NCBI GenBank assembly: GCA_041640715.1
Contig: JBEPZU010000003.1
Coordinates: 12,826 to 76,825 of the forward strand
Direction of reading: 5' to 3'
DNA from: Thermoproteota archaeon
Lineage (GTDB): Archaea > Thermoproteota > Thermoprotei > Gearchaeales > Gearchaeaceae
Length of the DNA: 64,000 bases
A model generated the notes under the pieces. The model searched no databases, was not told the DNA's origin, and saw nothing but the letters and a program-made list of their open reading frames with translations. The position numbers and the translations under genes were made by a program. Positions 38,328-57,471 of the stretch are shown piece by piece (within the stretch, counting starts at the first letter, position 1; every line of letters starts with the position of its first letter).

Positions 38328-39887
38328 CTAAGCGGTCCTAAGGTATTCCTCTGGAATTATATTACCAATATTGAGTATTAGATGAGGATCGAAGGTTTTC
38401 TTTAATCTGGCCATTTGCAGCAATACTTCCTCGCTGTAAAGCAAAGAGATTAATGGCTTCCTAATCCCTCCTTCGATATAATACTTCTTACCTACGCCAT
38501 GCTCTGCGCTTATAGTCCCACCTAGCTCTACTGCTTTCTTGAGCAACTTCAAAACGTTTTTTTCAGCGATCCTTTGCTCATCATCATTTCTTGGTAAGAA
38601 GTTAAAATGAAGGTGGAAATTACCTATATGACCGAAGAGAACGTATTTTATCCCTGAACTTTTACCTACTTGATGATAATACTTATACATTTCTTCGAAT
38701 CCAGATTCAGGCACTGCTATGTCTGTTGCTATTTTACGCGTTCCATGTAATCTCAAGAACTCATTAACTCCAGCAGGTAGTGCATGTCTTATTTTCTTAG
38801 CTTCTTCAATTATAGAAGCTTCTGCATCGAAACTAGAGAGCAATTCGTTTAACATTTCCAACTGTTTCATTTCCTCATCTTCGTTTTTCGATTCTATTTC
38901 CAAGTCTATTATAGCTTTCGCATTAGCAGGTATTTGTTCGCTATACCTTTCTCTTAGAAAATCTAAGGAATTTTCATCGAAAAATTCTACAGCGATGACG
39001 TTCAATTCTTCTTCCCTAGCTTTCTTACGCATTAACTTAGAAAATCTAACTGCATTATATTCTTCTTTGAAATAAGCGAAGATCGGAGTTATCCTATTGG
39101 GCTTTTTTATCAACCTTACTTCTATCTCGCTTATGACCCCTAAAGTTCCTTCAGAACCTATGAACAAATCGATCAAATCATCGCTTATGAAATAACCTGC
39201 AGCGTTCTTCTCTACTTTAGGTATCTCATAATTAGGCAGTTTAATGCTCAGTTCTCCTTTGGAAAGTTTGAGTTTGAACTCTTTATCTTTTGCTAAGTTT
39301 TCACCTCTTCTTATTTCTATAACCTCAACTATCGGTAGCACTATTCTAAGCCTTTTAACGTAATCTCTTGTTGAACCATATTTAAAGGTCCTTGATCCTG
39401 ATGCATTAGTTGCTACGTTTCCTCCTAAAAGCGAGCTCTCTTCTGTGGGATCTGGGGGATAGAATAATCCTTTGCTTTCAACCATCCTTTTGAACACGTA
39501 CAAAGGTATTCCAGGAGGCGCCTTAGCGTAATATTCCCCTTTCTCATCAACTCCTATGATTATAGAATAAGTCCTGCCGAATTCGTTTGTCTTTATGAGC
39601 TCTTCATTTTTTGAAGCCTTAGCTCTTACTTCAGAGAACTCTTCCATTGAAACTATAATCCCTCCTAAAGGAACACGCGAACCAGTTATTCCTGTGCCTG
39701 CTCCTGAGATCGTTATTCTTTTAGATTTAGATATCGCTTCATTGATAACTTCAACGATCTCATGTTCATCTTCAACGATTATTAGCTCGTCGGCAAAACC
39801 TTTAATTATCCTTGATTCATCATATAAATACTTTTCAATTATTTCGTCATAATATCTTTTCATCATATTTAATTGAAATTTCCTCAT
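38328..39887 (-). CDS. FAD-linked oxidase (GlcD / D-lactate dehydrogenase family).
   Basis: 519 aa. The FAD-binding PCMH motif is ITISGAGTGITGSRVPLGGIIVSMEEF. The C-terminal FGHIGNFHLHFNF and SAEHGVGKKY match the family. Confidence 0.85.
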   Translation of the reverse strand: MRKFQLNMMKRYYDEIIEKYLYDESRIIKGFADELIIVEDEHEIVEVINEAISKSKRITISGAGTGITGSRVPLGGIIVSMEEFSEVRAKASKNEELIKTNEFGRTYSIIIGVDEKGEYYAKAPPGIPLYVFKRMVESKGLFYPPDPTEESSLLGGNVATNASGSRTFKYGSTRDYVKRLRIVLPIVEVIEIRRGENLAKDKEFKLKLSKGELSIKLPNYEIPKVEKNAAGYFISDDLIDLFIGSEGTLGVISEIEVRLIKKPNRITPIFAYFKEEYNAVRFSKLMRKKAREEELNVIAVEFFDENSLDFLRERYSEQIPANAKAIIDLEIESKNEDEEMKQLEMLNELLSSFDAEASIIEEAKKIRHALPAGVNEFLRLHGTRKIATDIAVPESGFEEMYKYYHQVGKSSGIKYVLFGHIGNFHLHFNFLPRNDDEQRIAEKNVLKLLKKAVELGGTISAEHGVGKKYYIEGGIRKPLISLLYSEEVLLQMARLKKTFDPHLILNIGNIIPEEYLRTA

Positions 39888-39933
39888 TAATAGGTTGGAA
39901 AAGTTTTTATTTTACGAACATTAATCTACGCAT

Positions 39934-40242
39934 ATGTCTGAGCAAATAAGCGAGAAAGAAGTCATTGAAGCTTTGAAGAATTGTTATGATCCTGAGATAC
40001 CTTTTAACATAGTAGATCTTGGATTGATTTATGGTCTCGAAATAGAAGATCAAAAAGTTAAGATAAAAATGACTCTCACTTCTCCCTTCTGCCCAGTAGC
40101 TCCTTTAGTAATAGAGCAAGTTAGAGAAGAAGTGATGAAGGTCAAAGGAGTAAAGGAAGTAGAAGTAGAGCTTGTATGGGAACCTAGGTGGACTCCTGAT
40201 AGGATGAGCGAAGATGCTAAACTCGCTTTGGGTCTTATATAA
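39934..40242 (+). CDS. DUF59 / MIP18-family (SufT-like) Fe-S assembly protein.
   Basis: 102 aa. CYDPEIPFNIVDLGLIY with a conserved Cys in TSPFCP. Confidence 0.75.
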   Translation: MSEQISEKEVIEALKNCYDPEIPFNIVDLGLIYGLEIEDQKVKIKMTLTSPFCPVAPLVIEQVREEVMKVKGVKEVEVELVWEPRWTPDRMSEDAKLALGLI

Positions 40243-40594
40243 ACAGAGATTTTTCATTTAAAGAAAAATTTACTTATAATCGAGATTTAAATATTGTTAT
40301 TTTAAATTATTAATATATTTCTATAGTTTATCCTCGTATAACTTTCCCATCTTTGATTAAATCTATTATTAAGGAGATCTTGTAATATTTCGTGACTTGT
40401 TTCTGCTCTATGAGTTTGATTGATAGGTATTGCAGAAGTAACTACGAAAATGAATGAAAATTAGAGCTGTAATTTCTTCTCAAACATCTTGAATCTTCAA
40501 TGGAAGTATCATAGAATCGATATTAATAGCTTTCTTGTTTACATCGTTAATCAACAATAGGTTAGGTTTTTAAATTATGAGCAAATAAATAAGT

Positions 40595-40888
40595 ATGGTT
40601 TTCACGTTCGAGCAAGCAACTGCTTTAGTTTTGCCATTTATAATAGGGTTCTTGATAGGTTATATACTAAAGCAATCCCTAAAACTATTAGGCGCATTGG
40701 TTGCTTTAGTGCTGATTTTACTATTAGCAGGATATATAAATATAGAGTTTCTTCAATTTGTATTTGCGAATTTGCTAAACTATGGTGCCAATGCTTTAGA
40801 AGCAGCTACAGCTGTAGGAGCGATTCTTCCATTCTCTTCTATGTTATTTATAATAGGTGTAGCTTTAGGTTTCTTGATATCTAAGTGA
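40595..40888 (+). CDS. Small membrane protein (2-3 TM) co-transcribed with dinB.
   Basis: 97 aa and hydrophobic. Its stop overlaps the dinB start (ATGA at 40885). Confidence 0.45.
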   Translation: MVFTFEQATALVLPFIIGFLIGYILKQSLKLLGALVALVLILLLAGYINIEFLQFVFANLLNYGANALEAATAVGAILPFSSMLFIIGVALGFLISK

Positions 40889-41982
40889 AGATAATCGCTT
40901 GTGTAGATTTGGATTATTTTTATGCCCAATGCGAGGAAGTATTAAATCCTAGCTTAAAGAATAAGCCAGTAATAGTATGCATTTTCTCAGGTAGAGGAAA
41001 AGAAGGAGGCGCAGTGGCGACTTGTAACTACGTAGCTAGGAAGTACGGCGTGAAGTCTGGGATGGCCATATCTCAAGCTAAAAAGCTACTCGAAGGAGTC
41101 GAGTCTTTCTTCATACCTGCGAGACTAGAGATTTATGAAGAAATCTCGAGGAGGATAATGGGAATAATGCGAAAATATGCAGATAGTTTTGAAGAAGTAA
41201 GCATAGATGAAGCTTTTTTGGACATAACTAAAGCATCAAAGGCAGATTTCGAAGTAGCAAAGGGGTTGATGGAGAAAATGAAAGAAGAAATATTCAAGAA
41301 AGAAAATTTAACGTGCTCTGTAGGAATCTCTTTTTCTAAAGTAATAGCTAAGATTGCCTCTGGTTTGAATAAACCTAACGGGTTGGTTGTGATAAGGCCT
41401 GAAGATTTGGAAAAGGTCATTTGGCTTCTTCCTGTAGAGGAAATTCCTGGAATAGGGCCTAAGACAAAGGAGATTTTGAACAAGCTTGGACTTTATACAA
41501 TAGGAGATCTAGCAAAAGCGAATGTTTTAACGTTAATTCAAGTATTCGGTAAGAAAACTGCAACTTACCTAAAGCTCGCGGCTGAAGGAAGAGATAAAGA
41601 AGAAGTAAAGCCAGCTGAGAAAGCTAAACAATATAGCAGGATGATAACGCTTAAAGAGAATACGTTAGCTTTAGCGGATATCCTTCCTTATGTGGAATCT
41701 TTATGCAAAGAATTATCTGAAGATCTCAAGATGAATAATAAATTGGCTAAGGGGATAGGTTTAACTGCGATATTAGCAGATCTATCTACCATTTCAAAAA
41801 ACAAAACTTTAGATCAACCTACTAATGATTTCAATAAAATATTCAATACAGCCAAAGATTTACTTCCAGAGCTAATAGCCAAATCCCGAAAGCTCTTCAG
41901 GAGAATATCTGTTAGAGCATATGGTTTAATAGATGTGAGCAATCTTGAAAATCTCGAACATTTCTTAGCTGATAGAATTTAA
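40885..41982 (+). CDS. dinB: Y-family DNA polymerase IV (Dpo4/Dbh-like).
   Basis: 365 aa. MKIIACVDLDYFYAQCEEV, SIDEAFLD and a C-terminal little-finger-like region are present. Confidence 0.9.
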   Translation: MKIIACVDLDYFYAQCEEVLNPSLKNKPVIVCIFSGRGKEGGAVATCNYVARKYGVKSGMAISQAKKLLEGVESFFIPARLEIYEEISRRIMGIMRKYADSFEEVSIDEAFLDITKASKADFEVAKGLMEKMKEEIFKKENLTCSVGISFSKVIAKIASGLNKPNGLVVIRPEDLEKVIWLLPVEEIPGIGPKTKEILNKLGLYTIGDLAKANVLTLIQVFGKKTATYLKLAAEGRDKEEVKPAEKAKQYSRMITLKENTLALADILPYVESLCKELSEDLKMNNKLAKGIGLTAILADLSTISKNKTLDQPTNDFNKIFNTAKDLLPELIAKSRKLFRRISVRAYGLIDVSNLENLEHFLADRI

Positions 41983-42444
41983 TTTTTTGAAGAGTTCAAT
42001 TATTTCTTCCTTGCTAACCCATGGGACTTCTAGGTATTCTAGTATTTCATCTTCGCTCATCCCTAAATTTTTGGCTTCTTCGATAGTGTATTTATACGCT
42101 TCGATTTCTGTGGGTCTCTCTACGTAGGTATAGTTATTATCGAATAGATTCATACCTCTTCTCCATTGTCTAACGTGTATCAACTCATGTAGAATGTCTA
42201 AGTAAAGATACCTTAAGTCTCCTTTCTTAATGTATTCTTTGCAAATGTATATTGAACCATCGCTGTCTTCTACCCACATGTAGCCTTTGCATCTTACAAT
42301 CCTTATTTTCACGTTTTTCTTCATATCTTCGAACTCGGATTTTAATACGTTCTTTACTATCCAAGAATCCTCCAATCCTGAGAATACTTCTTCTAAGCTG
42401 TACTCGCCTTCCTTTAGCTTCCTGTTTATTTTGAAATTCTTCAT
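41965..42444 (-). CDS. Small HExxH zinc metallopeptidase-like protein (SprT/WLM/minimal zincin-like).
   Basis: 159 aa. GSIYICKEYIKKGDLRYLYLDILHELIHV is followed by ERPTEIEAY, a gluzincin-like third ligand. It is convergent with dinB. Confidence 0.5.
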   Translation of the reverse strand: MKNFKINRKLKEGEYSLEEVFSGLEDSWIVKNVLKSEFEDMKKNVKIRIVRCKGYMWVEDSDGSIYICKEYIKKGDLRYLYLDILHELIHVRQWRRGMNLFDNNYTYVERPTEIEAYKYTIEEAKNLGMSEDEILEYLEVPWVSKEEIIELFKKLNSIS

Positions 42445-42476
42445 TTCCTTTATTTACTTTATACCAAATATATAGT

Positions 42477-43334
42477 ATGGATATTTTTATATTCCAACCA
42501 GTTTCTCGAACCACGAAACTTGTGATGCAAGTGGAAGAGGTTCTTGTGAGAACTGAAACTAAATACCAGAAAGTGCTGATTGGCAGACTTAAAGAATATG
42601 GTCTGTCTCTTGTGCTAGATGAATTGCTACAAGTAGCGGAGGCAGATGAAGCATTTTATCATGAATGTTTAGTCCATCCAGCTCTTTTGAGCTTAGAAAA
42701 CCCTGAAAGTGTCTTAATAATAGGAGGAGGTGACGGTTGTGCTCTTAGAGAAGTGCTAAAGCATGATGTCGATGAAGCTACATTGGTTGATATCGACGGA
42801 GAATTAGTAGAACTTTGTAAACAATATTTAAGGAGCATAAATCAAAATTCTCTGAAGGATAGGAGAGTAAGAATAATAATAATGGATGGTAAACTCTTCA
42901 TCGAAAAGCAAGAAAAGAAGTATGATTGTATAATCTCAGATTTAACCGATCCTTATGGTCCTGAAATATCAAGAGAACTCTATTCGAAGAAGTTCTTCGA
43001 AAAAATTTCTACTCTGTTAAGACATGAGGGTATCTTTGTTACTCAGGCCGGATCTGCCTTTTATTATGGTGAAATATATGAAGAAATTTTAAGGAATGCT
43101 GCAAGCGTCTTCAAATACGTTAAGGGCTATGAAGTTTGGGTCCCTTCCTTTGGTTATAGTTGTTCCTTCATAATCGCTTCAAATTCAAAGAACATAGAAG
43201 ATATTAGAGAAGAAAGCATAGAAAAATTGATTGAAAAAAGAAAATTGAAGCTTAGATACTATAACGCTAGTGTTCATTTAAGCTTGCTTAAAAGACCTGT
43301 TTCAAGAAACCCTTTAACGATCTCGAACCTTTAG
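42477..43334 (+). CDS. speE: Spermidine synthase / polyamine aminopropyltransferase.
   Basis: 285 aa. VLIIGGGDGCALREVLKH and IISDLTDP are present. Confidence 0.9.
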   Translation: MDIFIFQPVSRTTKLVMQVEEVLVRTETKYQKVLIGRLKEYGLSLVLDELLQVAEADEAFYHECLVHPALLSLENPESVLIIGGGDGCALREVLKHDVDEATLVDIDGELVELCKQYLRSINQNSLKDRRVRIIIMDGKLFIEKQEKKYDCIISDLTDPYGPEISRELYSKKFFEKISTLLRHEGIFVTQAGSAFYYGEIYEEILRNAASVFKYVKGYEVWVPSFGYSCSFIIASNSKNIEDIREESIEKLIEKRKLKLRYYNASVHLSLLKRPVSRNPLTISNL

Positions 43335-46465: not shown

Positions 46466-47392
46466 GTGAAAATAAGGAAATTTAAGTTTTCAGACCTAGC
46501 ATCCTTAGTTAATTTGTACAATAACTTCATGAATTTTGATCCTGATTTCGTAGAGCTAAATGAAGAGAGTTTTAAAGCCAAATTCATAGACATGCCGTTT
46601 TGCTCTAGAGATTTAATTTTCGTTGCAGAACAAGGATCAATATTGGGGTGTATTTTTGCCGATGTAGATCCTTTAATGGAAGAGAAGTTCAAGAAAAGGA
46701 TCGCAGTAATAGATTTATTATTAGCTAAAAGGGAAGTTTTCCATGAAGTTGCTTCATCTCTTTTGGACTATTTAACAGTTAAGTTAAGGGATTTGAAGGT
46801 GGAAGAAATTCAAGTTCATTTCGTAGCAGAAAACCTCGAACAAGAAAACTCATTTTATAGAGAAAATTTCGAGTTGTCTAGGGTGTGGTATTACATGGAA
46901 GCAGAGTCTAGACCTTTTATGTTAGAGGATCTCCCTGAACATTTTTCTTGGCAACATTTGAAATTTAAAGGCAGAAAAGCGAATGCTAGGAAATGGATAG
47001 AATGTTATAACGAAGTCTTCAAAGACCATCCTTATATGAGGCCTTTAAGATATGAGGAACTTAAGATCTATTCTCTTGAAGAGAACTTCGATCCTACGGG
47101 ATACTTTGGTATATTTAAAGATGATGAAAATAAGTTCATAGCTGAATGTTCTTGTGAAGCTGAACCTGCAAAAAACAAAGGAGTGATATGGACAGTTGGT
47201 GTGCTTAAGGAATATAGAAATAGAGGTCTTGGGGAACTTCTAGTTAAAAAAGCCATCGATTGGATTTATAACAAAGGCTTGAAAAAGGCATCCATACACG
47301 TAGATAGTCAAAACGAGATAGCCTTCAAGCTATATTCTAAGCTAGGGTTTAAACCTATAAGGAGGAGGTTATTCTATTCTAAAATCCTCTAG
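46466..47392 (+). CDS. Tandem-GNAT N-acetyltransferase (MshD-like architecture).
   Basis: 308 aa. The C-terminal GNAT has EYRNRGLGELLVKKAIDW...FKLYSKLGF. The N-terminal half has a second, degenerate GNAT-like region. Confidence 0.6.
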   Translation: MKIRKFKFSDLASLVNLYNNFMNFDPDFVELNEESFKAKFIDMPFCSRDLIFVAEQGSILGCIFADVDPLMEEKFKKRIAVIDLLLAKREVFHEVASSLLDYLTVKLRDLKVEEIQVHFVAENLEQENSFYRENFELSRVWYYMEAESRPFMLEDLPEHFSWQHLKFKGRKANARKWIECYNEVFKDHPYMRPLRYEELKIYSLEENFDPTGYFGIFKDDENKFIAECSCEAEPAKNKGVIWTVGVLKEYRNRGLGELLVKKAIDWIYNKGLKKASIHVDSQNEIAFKLYSKLGFKPIRRRLFYSKIL

Positions 47393-48559
47393 TATTCCTG
47401 TAATGCTAGAGAAAATAGAGTAATTTGTTCTAAGTTCTTTAATTGCACTTTCTCCTAGATTCTTCTTTTCTGCATAATCCCTAAGTTCGATCCAATTTTC
47501 TATAGCTTTTCTTACATTCAAATTATTTTCTATATTTTTAAGAAATTTTTTTCTGTAATATATAATTCTTTTTATTATATTTTTGTCATCTTCTCCTTTG
47601 TTTATTTTTATTTTCTTAAGTTTATTTTTTATTTTTTTATAATATTTTAATTTATTTTGATCGAAATTATAATCTTTATTTATTTTCATTGATAAGAAAT
47701 AAATTCTAATATCATCTACATCATATTTCTTGATTATTTCTCTGAAATATATTGTGTTCCCCAACGATTTTGACATTTTTTCTCCCTTGAATTTAAGTAA
47801 ACCGGTATGAAGGAAATTCCTAGATACAGGATATTCTCCTTTAAAATATTCTCCTAAAGTTAATATGTATTCGTGATGCGGAAATATCAAATCCTTAGCT
47901 CCTATATGCAAATCGCAATAGCCGCCTAAAACATAGTTTATTACCGTGAAATCTTGAAGATGCCATCCTATCATTCTTCTTCCAAAGCTCGTGTTTATTT
48001 CGCCATCTTTCAATGAATACCATAGCTTAAAGTCTGCTGGATTTCTTTTGTTCTCAGCAGGTTCTAATAAAACATTTAGTATTCTTTGTTTATCAATTCC
48101 TGAAAGTTTTCCTATGTTATTTGAAAGTGAAATATCGCAATATATTCCTTCTTCGAGTTCATAGGAATAGCCTTTTTTCATAAGATCTTGTATTATTCGC
48201 TTCGATTCCTCTGAAAGCTCAGAAGGTTTTATTGGAATGAAGTGCTTTATTCCTAGAACTTTCAAATCTTCATTTATTCTTCTGAAATATCTTTCTACTA
48301 TTTCGTTTTCATCGATTTTTTCTTGAATAGCTCTTTCTATTATTTTTATGTCCATATCGGTGAAATTGATAACGAAGATGGTTTCATAACCCTTGAATCT
48401 AAAGTATCTATTGATTAGGTCTGCTATTAACAGGACTCTTAAATGCCCTAGATGAAGATCATCATAAAGAGTAGGGCCGCAGACGAATATCTTTATGGAA
48501 TTTTCAAGGGGCTTGAACTTTTCGAATTTTCCGTGAATTCTATTGTATAATCTGAGCAT
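47369..48559 (-). CDS. Cysteinyl-tRNA synthetase-family class I ligase; short form with the zinc-site Cys replaced.
   Basis: 396 aa. FVCGPTLYDDLHLGHL is the HIGH region, HIGAKDLIFPHHE and EKMSKSLGN are present, and WHLQDF stands where CysRS has WHIECS. Only ~128 aa follow KMSKS. Confidence 0.7.
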   Translation of the reverse strand: MLRLYNRIHGKFEKFKPLENSIKIFVCGPTLYDDLHLGHLRVLLIADLINRYFRFKGYETIFVINFTDMDIKIIERAIQEKIDENEIVERYFRRINEDLKVLGIKHFIPIKPSELSEESKRIIQDLMKKGYSYELEEGIYCDISLSNNIGKLSGIDKQRILNVLLEPAENKRNPADFKLWYSLKDGEINTSFGRRMIGWHLQDFTVINYVLGGYCDLHIGAKDLIFPHHEYILTLGEYFKGEYPVSRNFLHTGLLKFKGEKMSKSLGNTIYFREIIKKYDVDDIRIYFLSMKINKDYNFDQNKLKYYKKIKNKLKKIKINKGEDDKNIIKRIIYYRKKFLKNIENNLNVRKAIENWIELRDYAEKKNLGESAIKELRTNYSIFSSITGILEDFRIE

Positions 48560-48842: not shown

Positions 48843-49571
48843 TCATCGATACAATCTTTGGCATCTAGGGCAGAAGTAGGATATCCTTCTCAAACTACCT
48901 AATCGCTTTACTTTAATCTTGGTGCCGCAGAATAGGCAATTTTTTCGTCCATAAATCATCGTGAAGCTAAAAAGGTTTAACCCATCCTTTCTAGCCTTAT
49001 AGAAGATCTTGCAAAAATCACGCATCCATCCAAGCATAAATCTAAGCTTTTCCTCTTTTATTTTCTCTATTTTTGAAGCTGGATGTATCCTAGCAGCGAA
49101 CAATGCCTCGTTTTTTATTATGTTTCCTACTCCTGGAAGTATGCTTTGGTCGAGCAAAATATCACAAACGTATCCTTTTCTCTTTTTCAATCTTGCCAAT
49201 ACTTTTTCAGGATTCCAATCTTTTGCTAATATGTCTTTAGCGTTAGCTCTGAAGTATTTGACAAATTTAACTGAACAATTATAAAAATAAACTTTGTTAT
49301 TTGTTTCTATGGATAATCTTATTCTTTTTTCATCTTTGGTTATTTTATTTATGGAATAACTTCCATACATAAGAAAGTGTATTTTTATAAACCCTAGACC
49401 TTTTATTTTTATTAATAGATTTTTTCCATGACTGTATATTTTTTCAATTTCTTTATTCAGCAATTCTTCAAAATTTATATTTCTAGTTCTGCCCCATGCT
49501 TTTTTGATTACTTCTCCTTTGAATATTTCATTTAGTTTTTCAGCAAGCGCTTTTACACTCGGGCCTTCCAC
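48843..49571 (-). CDS. Fpg/Nei-family DNA glycosylase with a non-canonical N-terminus.
   Basis: 242 aa. The H2TH motif is LLDQSILPGVGNIIKNEALFAARIHP and the C-terminal zinc finger is CLFCG...CPRCQ. The start is GTG, giving M-E-G-P-S-V instead of M-P-E-L-P-E-V. Confidence 0.75.
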   Translation of the reverse strand: MEGPSVKALAEKLNEIFKGEVIKKAWGRTRNINFEELLNKEIEKIYSHGKNLLIKIKGLGFIKIHFLMYGSYSINKITKDEKRIRLSIETNNKVYFYNCSVKFVKYFRANAKDILAKDWNPEKVLARLKKRKGYVCDILLDQSILPGVGNIIKNEALFAARIHPASKIEKIKEEKLRFMLGWMRDFCKIFYKARKDGLNLFSFTMIYGRKNCLFCGTKIKVKRLGSLRRISYFCPRCQRLYR

Positions 49572-49599: not shown

Positions 49600-50325
49600 T
49601 TAAGAATTTTGTTTAATTATATTCATAAATTCAATCGCATCTTCAAACATGTAAATGTTATTGAAGAGGACGTATATTTCAGTAGCGCTCAATTTTTTTA
49701 TCATCCCATATAAACTCAAGAGGTCATCTTTGGTGTATTTGTAATTATACATTCTCTTCCCAGGAGGCGATCCATGCAATCGGAAATAAGCTATTTTAGA
49801 TTGAATCGCTGGGTTTGAAGCGAATGGATCAACACAATGTATTAAGTTGAATTTTTCGCATAGAGTTCTTATGTTTTCTATAGACCATCCTCTAAGCTCT
49901 ATAGCTATCTCTAAGTTATCTCTATCGATTTTAGAGAAGAAATTAAAAGCGTTTTTTATGTTTTTTTCATCATCCCTAAAGCTTGCGGGAAGTTGTAATA
50001 AACATATTTTAGCTTTTAATATTTTGCATATTTTCAACATTTCATTCCAAGAATCGAAAACTTCCTTAGTATCCTTGAGCTCACCGTAATTTTCGTTACT
50101 CTTGATTTTAGATCTCCTCCAAGTAGGACTCGTACTGGGATGCGTGATTCCTTGGAAACATTTTACTGTGAATTCAAAATCCTCAGGTGCTTCTTCTCTA
50201 AGTTTTTTAATCCTATCTTCATCAGGCAGATTATAAAAGGTTTCCTGAAGTTCTACCAACTTGAACTTTTGAAAATATATCTTTCTACTTCTTTGAAATC
50301 CGCAACAACCAACTTTTATATCCAC
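49600..50325 (-). CDS. DUF72 (YecE-like) family protein.
   Basis: 241 aa. VGCCGF, LVELQETFY, WR, FEFTVK and RLHG follow the DUF72 pattern. Confidence 0.65.
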   Translation of the reverse strand: MDIKVGCCGFQRSRKIYFQKFKLVELQETFYNLPDEDRIKKLREEAPEDFEFTVKCFQGITHPSTSPTWRRSKIKSNENYGELKDTKEVFDSWNEMLKICKILKAKICLLQLPASFRDDEKNIKNAFNFFSKIDRDNLEIAIELRGWSIENIRTLCEKFNLIHCVDPFASNPAIQSKIAYFRLHGSPPGKRMYNYKYTKDDLLSLYGMIKKLSATEIYVLFNNIYMFEDAIEFMNIIKQNS

Positions 50326-56188: not shown

Positions 56189-57471
56189 GCATAGATTATA
56201 TTAAACTCGAAACTGAGAACAAAAGTAAATTCATCCTCGAACCTTCTGCTGAGATTTGCATACCTTGTAGAGGAACACGTTATCTATGCGGTAGAAGTTA
56301 TTGTCCAATAATAGTTAGAACTATGAAAATGCTCAGGAGAATAGAACTGAGCAAAAGAATAATTGAAGGATCTTCGCCTCCAGCGGTTTTTGTAGGTAGA
56401 TTTGGTTATCCTAAGGTTAGTATAGGTTACTTGGTACCTCCTATAATAGGAGAAACAAGCCATTATGATCTTCCTGAATCGTGGAGTAATCTAAAGCTTG
56501 AAGATATATTGAACTTTCGTTTTTCCATGGTAAGAGGTTATAGAATAACTAATATCGAGGAGGCTAGGAATGAACCTAGTTGGCTTTTGAATCTGCAAGA
56601 AATAGCCGCCTCTAAACATCCAGTAGATATGGAGCTTAGACTAAAACGAATACCTTCGAAAAGCGTATTTCTCGATGAGATATCCCATCCCATGGGACCT
56701 TCTGCTATTCTTCAAGATCTTAGAATTTTCTCTGAAATCAAAATGGATGAGAAAATAGAGAAGGTTTATTATTCGAAAGACCTTAGCGCTAGAGAAGCGA
56801 TAATCAAACTTTACATGGAAGGAAAAGAGGTCTCCAAAATAGCCAAGGCATTAAGCGTTGGAATGTTAGGTTTTAAGAAAAGTAGAAAGCTTGTTCCTAC
56901 TAGATGGAGCATAACCGCTGTAGATGATACGATTTCAAAAGAATTGGTAGAGAGGATAAAATATTTCGAAACGATAGATAAGATCAGAGTTTATTTCAAA
57001 GAAAAGCATCTTAATAGGTTTGTCATAATAATGCTTCCTAATAAATGGTCTTACGAATGGATTGAATGTTGGTATCCGCATACTACTTGGAATTTGTACG
57101 GAAAGGAAGCAGAAGCTGAATCTGATTATGAAAGTTTCAAGGGAAAGAAAGAATATTCAAGTCTAGGCGGATGTTATTATGCAGTTAGATTAGCAGTCGC
57201 TGAAAGATTGAATCTAGAGAGAAGACAAGCTACGGTATTAGCGATAAGGGAAATATTGCCGGGATTCATCACATCCATCGGCGTTTGGTTCGTTAGAGAA
57301 AGCATTAGAGAAGTCTTAAAGGAGAAGTTTTTGGTTTTTGAAGACATTAAAGACGCTTTGGAGTATTCCTTTTCAAAACTTTTAATAAATAAGAATAAAA
57401 TAATAGAGAAGAGTAAAATTTTAAAAAATATATATTTTCAAACAAGAATTAAGGATTTCTTGATTAAATAA
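56179..57471 (+). CDS. nreA: NreA-like archaeal DNA repair protein (DUF650/DUF651).
   Basis: 430 aa. The N-terminus EICIPCRGTRYLCGRSYCPII and SPPAVFVGRFGYPKVSIG match the Nre N-domain pattern. It overlaps the end of the S53-like gene by 10 nt. Confidence 0.6.
   Translation: MDLSIDYIKLETENKSKFILEPSAEICIPCRGTRYLCGRSYCPIIVRTMKMLRRIELSKRIIEGSSPPAVFVGRFGYPKVSIGYLVPPIIGETSHYDLPESWSNLKLEDILNFRFSMVRGYRITNIEEARNEPSWLLNLQEIAASKHPVDMELRLKRIPSKSVFLDEISHPMGPSAILQDLRIFSEIKMDEKIEKVYYSKDLSAREAIIKLYMEGKEVSKIAKALSVGMLGFKKSRKLVPTRWSITAVDDTISKELVERIKYFETIDKIRVYFKEKHLNRFVIIMLPNKWSYEWIECWYPHTTWNLYGKEAEAESDYESFKGKKEYSSLGGCYYAVRLAVAERLNLERRQATVLAIREILPGFITSIGVWFVRESIREVLKEKFLVFEDIKDALEYSFSKLLINKNKIIEKSKILKNIYFQTRIKDFLIK

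Follow-up and report, generated by a model that had tools for sequence, protein, structure and literature searches.

We analysed three adjoining genes of a Thermoproteota archaeon (order Gearchaeales; contig JBEPZU010000003.1 of assembly GCA_041640715.1) that encode a small membrane protein, a translesion DNA polymerase (DinB) and a protein of the zincin superfamily of metallohydrolases. They lie in a stretch of 64,000 nucleotides (nt), here called the window, which is AT-rich (about 31-39% G+C per 2 kb) and tightly packed with housekeeping genes. An open reading frame (ORF) listing places the gene for the membrane protein, which is 97 amino acids (aa) long, at 40595-40888 (forward strand), dinB, which encodes a 365-aa Y-family DNA polymerase IV of the Dpo4/Dbh type and starts with GTG, at 40885-41982 (forward strand), and the gene for the 159-aa zincin at 41965-42444 (reverse strand); all three genes are real. 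The GTG start of dinB and the TGA stop of the membrane gene share the letters GTGA (40885-40888, forward strand), and the coding sequences of dinB and the zincin overlap tail to tail by 18 nt (41965-41982). Oligo-T runs terminate archaeal transcription, and a run of six T that stands right behind the dinB stop, within the zincin coding sequence (41983-41988, forward strand), probably acts as such a terminator. An earlier note on this locus, made from the letters alone, had called dinB Dpo4-like, had placed a small protein with two to three transmembrane segments upstream of it, its stop coupled to the dinB start, and had seen the 18-nt overlap of the dinB 3' end by a convergent gene; our results agree on each of these. 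The overlap at 40885, which it gave as ATGA, exists, but its letters are GTGA and dinB starts with GTG.

The 159-aa protein represents a new, well-defined family within the known zincin superfamily. No significant family for it emerged when Pfam, NCBIfam, PDB sequences, PADLOC and PHROGs were searched with single sequences and with profiles, and public members are all named 'hypothetical protein' except for one mis-annotated as 'Anti-repressor SinI'; we rejected the matches to the SinI anti-repressor as spurious, as they are short and confined to one C-terminal helix. A word-indexed search yielded 28 clusters. At 50% identity, the family has 285 representatives (203 with E <= 1e-10), with at least 587 confirmed loci in species-representative genomes and at least 595 in metagenomes. 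Among the loci listed, the hosts are mostly Thermoproteota sensu lato (Bathyarchaeia, Nitrososphaeria and the window's own clade, defined below); the others are Marsarchaeota, Micrarchaeota, Brockarchaeota, one Asgard genome, Thermoplasmata and some bacteria. Across 55 members that are 26-61% identical to the window protein, HExxH, D83 and E113/E115 are conserved at 95-100% (HELIH at 95-98%, E113 and E115 at 96-98%), so that HExxH cannot be a match by chance. Conservation covers Y81-L82-D83, H86-E87-x-x-H90, Q93, G97, Y107, P111-T112-E113-x-E115-A116-Y117, G128 and Y137-L138, giving the family signature YLDxxHELxH ... PTEIEAY. The definition of this large, mostly archaeal family of minimal zinc hydrolases, for which there was neither an existing model nor an informative name, is the useful outcome of the analysis. 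Some members are tandem proteins with two or three zincin domains in 323-396 aa (P0034, P0037, P0042 and P0053), and one carries C-terminal AHSA1 and DUF3471 domains.

The fold of the protein was predicted confidently by AlphaFold2 with the family alignment (pLDDT 94.3, pTM 0.90). The model shows a small sheet, a backing helix, an active-site helix with HExxH (residues 77-95), a helix that starts with PTEIEAY (residues 111-126) and two C-terminal helices. The zincin domain fills all 159 aa, and the model shows neither hydrophobic helices outside the globular fold nor an anchor of hydrophobic or amphipathic type. The motif for zinc binding and catalysis, HELIH (H86-E87-x-x-H90), lies on the active-site helix and is encoded at 42175-42189 on the reverse strand (CAT GAG TTG ATA CAC in the reverse complement). 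H86 and H90 are the only histidines of the window protein, and no further histidine column reaches 60% conservation in the 55 members. A three-histidine site of the kind found in Spartan, Wss1 and the minigluzincins is thus impossible, which leaves an acidic residue as the only option for the third zinc ligand. The two glutamates of PTEIEAY (residues 111-117; 42094-42114, reverse strand), E113 and E115, sit 23-25 residues past H90 at the start of helix 111-126. Judged by this conservation and position, the protein is probably a gluzincin-type enzyme in which E113 or E115 supplies the third ligand. The window protein is acidic (pI 5.4, net charge -4), as is the family (median pI 5.7, net charge about -5), and by composition and architecture the family has a single domain and no DNA-binding or Zn-ribbon module.

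We compared the model with known metalloproteases. The figures in the structural comparison were 7.8 for BlaR1 (M56) and for the VgrG2b effector, 7.5 for selecase, 6.9 for projannalysin and for ArdC, 6.7 for Spartan, 6.4 for proabylysin and for BepA (M48), about 6 for M1 aminopeptidases and 5.0 for Wss1, which puts the zincin slightly nearer to BlaR1 and selecase than to Spartan or Wss1. Foldseek ranked selecase and projannalysin at the top (E 8e-3 to 0.06), followed by an M48 peptidase (0.06) and Spartan (0.08), with IrrE/PprI above 1, and the sole match in a profile search of PDB sequences was selecase/projannalysin (E about 0.1). Weak Pfam matches to zincin families over the 55 members were spread across Peptidase_M78 (14 members, best E 2.2e-4), SprT-like (PF10263; 11 members, best E 0.0029), DUF6782 (10) and YgjP-like (4); the window protein itself matched neither Peptidase_M78 nor, at E up to 10, SprT-like. 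SprT, WLM and the minigluzincins share one structural organisation, and WLM and SprT belong to the minimal-zincin neighbourhood (PMC4559962). Fold and sequence place the new family in this neighbourhood; no membership of a specific family follows.

The minigluzincins (selecase MJ1213, projannalysin and proabylysin) share the minimal soluble fold, but they measure about 105-110 aa against 159 aa, the roughly 50 extra residues of the window protein forming N-terminal strands and two C-terminal helices; they also carry a histidine seven residues past HExxH (in selecase, HELLHLKYGKYH), whereas the window family has none there and has PTEIEAY 21 residues later instead, and their sequence similarity to the window protein is not significant. 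The M48 and M56 zincins (BlaR1/MecR1, BepA, HtpX and Ste24) have their catalytic domain set within or beside transmembrane helices or TPR domains, whereas the window protein consists of one soluble domain that stands alone. SprT/Spartan and Wss1/WLM proteases have three-histidine zinc sites and DNA-binding regions, both of which are missing from the window protein, as is any Pfam match at threshold; its sequence does not fit the Wss1/WLM signature HExxHx5H. ImmA/IrrE proteins (Peptidase_M78) share HExxH with a downstream glutamate and are the most frequent weak Pfam match over the family, but the window protein matches them neither significantly in sequence nor well in structure, and no paired HTH gene (of Xre, ImmR or DdrO type) was found near it, where the neighbours are dinB and a spermidine synthase gene, or in the archaeal contexts examined. 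The family thus fails the tests for SprT/WLM and does not group with ImmA/IrrE either. The earlier note had recognised the protein as a zincin, which the predicted fold and the structural matches uphold, and had read it as SprT/WLM-like, which our results do not support: it has two histidines only, it is acidic and has no DNA-binding module, the recurring partners of the family outside the two dinB-adjacent lineages are GNAT and NUDIX enzymes, and the SprT-like profile matches are weak, being no better than those to M78, DUF6782 or YgjP. The G-x-I-Y-I block ahead of HELxH on which that reading had drawn is present but is not specific to SprT/WLM; a strand followed by an active-site helix is common to zincins in general.

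The neighbourhoods of the family were examined in a comparison set of 80 genome loci, 80 metagenome loci and a few single-contig look-ups. Outside two lineages in which the zincin adjoins dinB, the recurring partners are GNAT and NUDIX proteins. The GNAT association extends to true GNAT-zincin fusion proteins (P0043, P0047, P0048, P0066, P0080 and L045). Genes for CysRS, a GNAT of about 250 aa and the zincin follow one another with overlaps of 4 to 17 nt and are contiguous in Nitrososphaerales-type genomes, and another context pairs the zincin with a divergent two-domain GNAT. In the Bathyarchaeia-type context, an AmmeMemoRadiSam radical-SAM gene precedes the zincin and a NUDIX gene converges on it; in one locus, the AmmeMemoRadiSam-type gene upstream of the zincin is split by an intein with a DUF559 endonuclease-like insert (L024:3908-6052). 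Metagenome contigs of high GC content (63-69%), which are probably bacterial, carry a co-directional string of zincin, a 111-aa tRNA_bind protein, NUDIX and a 145-aa GNAT (L135:200-3209, L142:4995-7998, L151, L153 and L163), flanked upstream by M1 aminopeptidase, HTH and TPR genes and downstream by a convergent class I/II aminotransferase gene.

The window contains a two-domain GNAT of its own (308 aa; 46466-47392, forward strand), whose best NCBIfam match, under the cut-off, is the mycothiol synthase MshD. Its gene overlaps tail to tail with that of a CysRS-like protein (396 aa; 47369-48559, reverse strand), and the pair recurs in L002 and L089. The CysRS-like protein has no anticodon-binding domain and scores 253 bits against the cysS model (cut-off 340), with MshC as its second-best match. 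These weak MshC and MshD matches prompted the idea of a mycothiol-like pathway, with the CysRS-like protein as MshC, the two-domain GNAT as MshD and the zincin as the amidase. The idea was weakened, and we dropped it: the Nitrososphaerales CysRS passes the cysS cut-off, the window GNAT is remote from the fused GNAT, and we found no supporting literature.

The two lineages with dinB next to the zincin are the clade of the window and ammonia-oxidising archaea. The window clade comprises eight loci from hot-spring Thermoproteota (the window, L001, L002, L009-L012 and L089), including the YNPFFA single-cell genome AAA471-B05, and dinB stands tail to tail with the zincin in all eight. The same arrangement is found in 27 genome and 28 metagenome loci of Nitrosopumilales- or Nitrosotalea-type archaea; among these is a deeper subgroup (L144, L145, L150 and L166), its DinB being only about 55% identical to the others. 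The gene order in ammonia oxidisers runs from endonuclease dU through an opposite-strand 128-aa gene, NreA and thaumarchaeosortase to the zincin and a convergent dinB (4-nt overlap). The gene for NreA, an archaeal DNA-repair protein, thus lies two genes upstream of the zincin there. The window has an NreA homologue, 39% identical to that of Nitrosopumilales along 372 aa, whose gene (56347-57462, forward strand) stands 14 kb away from the zincin gene. At L071:7049-8486 and at 26 further Nitrosopumilales genome loci, the end of the thaumarchaeosortase gene (TIGR04297, 471 bits) runs into the start of the zincin gene, which suggests that the two are co-translated; a full-text search of a paper collection for 'thaumarchaeosortase' gave no papers, and this pairing was thus not seen described there. 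No dinB was present within up to 8 kb either side of the zincin in 49 of the 80 genome loci, or in the fetched DNA around it in 52 of the 80 metagenome loci.

DinB itself is an ordinary, catalytically intact Dpo4-type translesion polymerase of an already-known kind, judged by its sequence. It matches all three Pfam domains above their cut-offs (IMS 154.5 bits, E 2.4e-45; IMS_HHH 31.3 bits; IMS_C 56.2 bits), passes NCBIfam PRK02406 (260.6 bits, cut-off 256), scores 312 bits against PRK01216 (below its cut-off of 339) and aligns over residues 3-357 with Dpo4/Dbh chains in the PDB (E about 1e-72). The catalytic motifs DLDYFYAQ (at residue 8) and SIDEAFLD (at residue 106) are intact, and their carboxylates are, we take it, the equivalents of Dpo4 D7, D105 and E106. 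The protein is collinear with Sulfolobus Dpo4/Dbh over its full length and shares the catalytic acidic motifs without notable difference; only the coupled upstream membrane ORF is peculiar to the clade.

This membrane ORF is a real gene, since it encodes three hydrophobic segments (by hydropathy, residues of about 8-25, 31-49 and 72-95), is under purifying selection (pN/pS 0.16-0.37 against four relatives) and is exactly 97 aa long in every clade relative found. The FUN14 profile (PF04930) aligns end to end with the protein over 92 positions, below its cut-off of 22.5 bits: the window protein scores 12.8 bits and four homologues score 11.9-18.2 bits, with relatives reaching 17.4-18.2. FUN14 small membrane proteins likewise have about 95 aa and three hydrophobic helices, but the 97-aa protein and its homologues stay at 12-18 bits. 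Only five homologue clusters were found in 5.8 billion proteins. One distant homologue is named Fun14 by JGI, and the remotest adjoins succinate dehydrogenase genes rather than dinB; as the sole distant homologue sits there, we rejected a general association of dinB with FUN14-like proteins.

All eight loci of the clade, where DinB is 57-83% identical to that of the window, have the 4-nt overlap between membrane gene and dinB, which reads ATGA in five relatives and GTGA in the window. At four other archaeal dinB loci that we examined there is no such upstream membrane ORF, and the overlap is thus conserved but clade-specific. A T/A-rich, TATA-like box stands about 20-30 nt 5' of the first ATG in all eight loci; in the window it is tttttaaatta (40567-40577, forward strand), roughly 20-28 nt before the ATG of the membrane gene, and is a putative archaeal promoter. 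We saw no obvious ribosome-binding site before dinB. A second TATA-like stretch (ttatttataatagg), inside the 3' part of the membrane ORF, could be an internal promoter but is degraded in L010 and L011, which disfavours it. These features are consistent with a leaderless bicistronic mRNA: a leaderless-type promoter would drive a transcript of the FUN14-like membrane protein followed by the Dpo4-type polymerase, and DinB would be made by termination-reinitiation at the conserved (A/G)TGA. The upstream cistron would then set the output of DinB, which implies no joint biochemical function of the two proteins. The coupling would be an example of distal-cistron translation on archaeal leaderless mRNA, and as a clade-specific arrangement it is of modest general interest.

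Both neighbours of dinB are thus kept next to it in relatives. The earlier note had left open whether the zincin accompanies dinB in other archaea; it does, tail to tail, in the Nitrosopumilales-type archaea, but dinB is absent at 49 genome loci and neither the zincin nor the membrane gene adjoins dinB at the four other archaeal dinB loci. At two of those four loci, unrelated genes overlap the dinB 3' end by 4 nt, so tight convergent packing at this end is not special. Within the window clade, the dinB-zincin junction varies from the 18-nt overlap of the window to an 80-nt gap, the largest overlap among the relatives being 17 nt; the genes stay close together without conserving the overlap as such. 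Each dinB-adjacent zincin clade was monophyletic in 50 of 50 neighbour-joining (NJ) bootstraps, and the two were not sisters in about 80% of replicates. Identity between the two lineages is about 41% for DinB and about 44% for the zincin, and the genes around the pair are mostly different. We rejected a recent joint transfer of the pair, as neither protein is closer between these lineages than to other lineages (about 41-48% identity). On its own, this would speak for selection on the pairing, but both lineages keep CysRS within 1-8 kb of the zincin, and in Nitrosopumilales the GNAT partner follows CysRS. Inherited synteny is for this reason sufficient to explain the pairing, and the adjacency would most simply be read as what different lineages retain, in part, of an old linkage group.

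With moderate confidence, we explain the locus as a whole by a coupled Dpo4 bicistron, a housekeeping zinc hydrolase and a retained ancestral gene order. The zincin would be a cytosolic, acidic, single-domain zinc hydrolase in which H86, H90 and a glutamate of PTEIEAY bind zinc and E87 acts as general base. A housekeeping-type hydrolase acting in the cytosol on peptides or N-acyl amides is favoured by architecture, charge, metal site and the partnerships with GNAT and NUDIX enzymes; most likely, it would cleave a peptide or N-acyl amide bond in a housekeeping or housecleaning pathway to which those enzymes also belong. Its position beside dinB would be a remnant of ancestral order in an old linkage group of CysRS, GNAT, zincin and dinB that is shared with ammonia-oxidising archaea, and any functional tie to DinB would be loose at most. 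Several points weigh against this. The zincin-dinB pair survives the divergence of both proteins between the two lineages, which hints at selection; in ammonia oxidisers the zincin stands in a string with NreA, with endonuclease dU further upstream, a DNA-repair context; and the GNAT of the window (46466-47392) has no more than a remote similarity to the GNAT found in the fusions. The NUDIX protein could be a MutT-like nucleotide sanitiser, and the GNAT and NUDIX partners are compatible with a genotoxic-stress theme. In Escherichia coli, dinB shares an operon with a GNAT gene, yafP, which would fit such a theme as well.

The SprT/Wss1 crosslink proteases are not known to have a characterised counterpart in archaea, and the earlier note had suggested that the pairing with dinB may be functional in crosslink repair. 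In such a damage-tolerance module, the zincin would be a functional analogue of SprT/Wss1 that trims DNA-crosslinked proteins or peptides or clears stalled repair proteins, Dpo4 would bypass the remnant and joint action would keep the two genes tail to tail. SPRTN has been tied to translesion synthesis, and peptide remnants require bypass (PMC6945406); tail-to-tail adjacency in two zincin clades that are not sisters in about 80% of NJ replicates, the string with NreA near endonuclease dU, the weak SprT-like matches in 11 of 55 members and the structural organisation common to SprT, WLM and minigluzincins (PMC4559962) point the same way. The third histidine is impossible, however, and the family is acidic and single-domain, without a basic, Zn-ribbon or PIP-like module. 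The convergent orientation means that dinB and the zincin are not co-transcribed, most loci for which DNA was fetched have no dinB (49 of 80 in genomes, 52 of 80 in metagenomes), and the zincin is missing at the four other archaeal dinB loci; the CysRS linkage common to both lineages suggests inherited order, and the GNAT fusions indicate another biochemical partner. We consider this module unlikely, and so too a repair-protease role beside Dpo4 argued from the recurring adjacency and the NreA context of ammonia oxidisers. A bolder version is somewhat less probable again: the family would be the missing archaeal damage-tolerance protease, a glutamate-type, DNA-independent-looking analogue of SprT/Wss1 that clears crosslinked or stalled proteins ahead of Dpo4 and is recruited through partners such as NreA or PCNA rather than by a DNA-binding domain of its own, with GNAT and NUDIX in the same genotoxic-stress response. 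No DNA-repair role is shown by our data, and inherited synteny suffices. A zincin beside a translesion polymerase is a candidate archaeal crosslink protease worth one biochemical test, but the evidence favours a different, GNAT-linked role; the partners of the family are reproducible, namely GNAT (by fusion) and NUDIX, with DinB and NreA in two lineages.

Two further explanations fare worse. The zincin could be a regulatory protease like ImmA/IrrE, inducing dinB and further repair genes by cleaving a transcriptional repressor once DNA is damaged; Peptidase_M78 (IrrE-like) is indeed the most frequent weak match (14 of 55), DNA-repair genes are neighbours in two lineages, an HTH gene lies two genes upstream on the high-GC contigs, and a glutamate ligand 23-25 residues past HExxH presumably resembles the IrrE site. 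Yet the window protein has no M78 match, neither the window nor any archaeal context examined has an adjoining HTH or Xre-type gene, and the family resembles a widely conserved chromosomal gene rather than one of mobile elements or stress islands, which makes this explanation very unlikely. Least probable of all is a membrane-associated 'split' M48/M56-type protease that would pair with the 97-aa protein in the window and with thaumarchaeosortase in the ammonia oxidisers. The overlap of the Nitrosopumilales zincin start with the thaumarchaeosortase end and the small membrane gene two genes off in the window clade fit it, but the gene for the 97-aa protein, on the other strand from the zincin, is coupled to dinB instead, this protein is unrelated to thaumarchaeosortase, a membrane neighbour is missing from most loci of the family, and the zincin lacks any hydrophobic or amphipathic anchor. 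We therefore retain the housekeeping hydrolase in ancestral gene order as the preferred explanation.

A spermidine synthase gene (42477-43334, forward strand; Pfam Spermine_synth, E 4e-51) is the divergent neighbour of the zincin, as it is in L001, L002, L009, L012 and L089 but not in L010 and L011. Its Pfam N-terminal domain begins at residue 14 (region 42477-42525), so the protein probably starts at an internal methionine, residue 17, in which case the divergent promoter region shared with the zincin would widen from 32 to about 80 nt. On the other side, an AT-rich non-coding gap of 350 nt (40243-40594) precedes the membrane gene; an Rfam scan of 39800-42700 gave no match. The gene upstream of the membrane gene varies, encoding an FeS-assembly protein in the window and being replaced by ferredoxin and FixC-like genes in L001, L002 and L089. 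Elsewhere in the window, a gene for an Fpg/Nei-type DNA glycosylase (48843-49571, reverse strand) adjoins that for a DUF72 protein (49600-50325, reverse strand), and a DUF72 gene on a Bathyarchaeia contig (L091:5892-6797) lies two genes from dinB.

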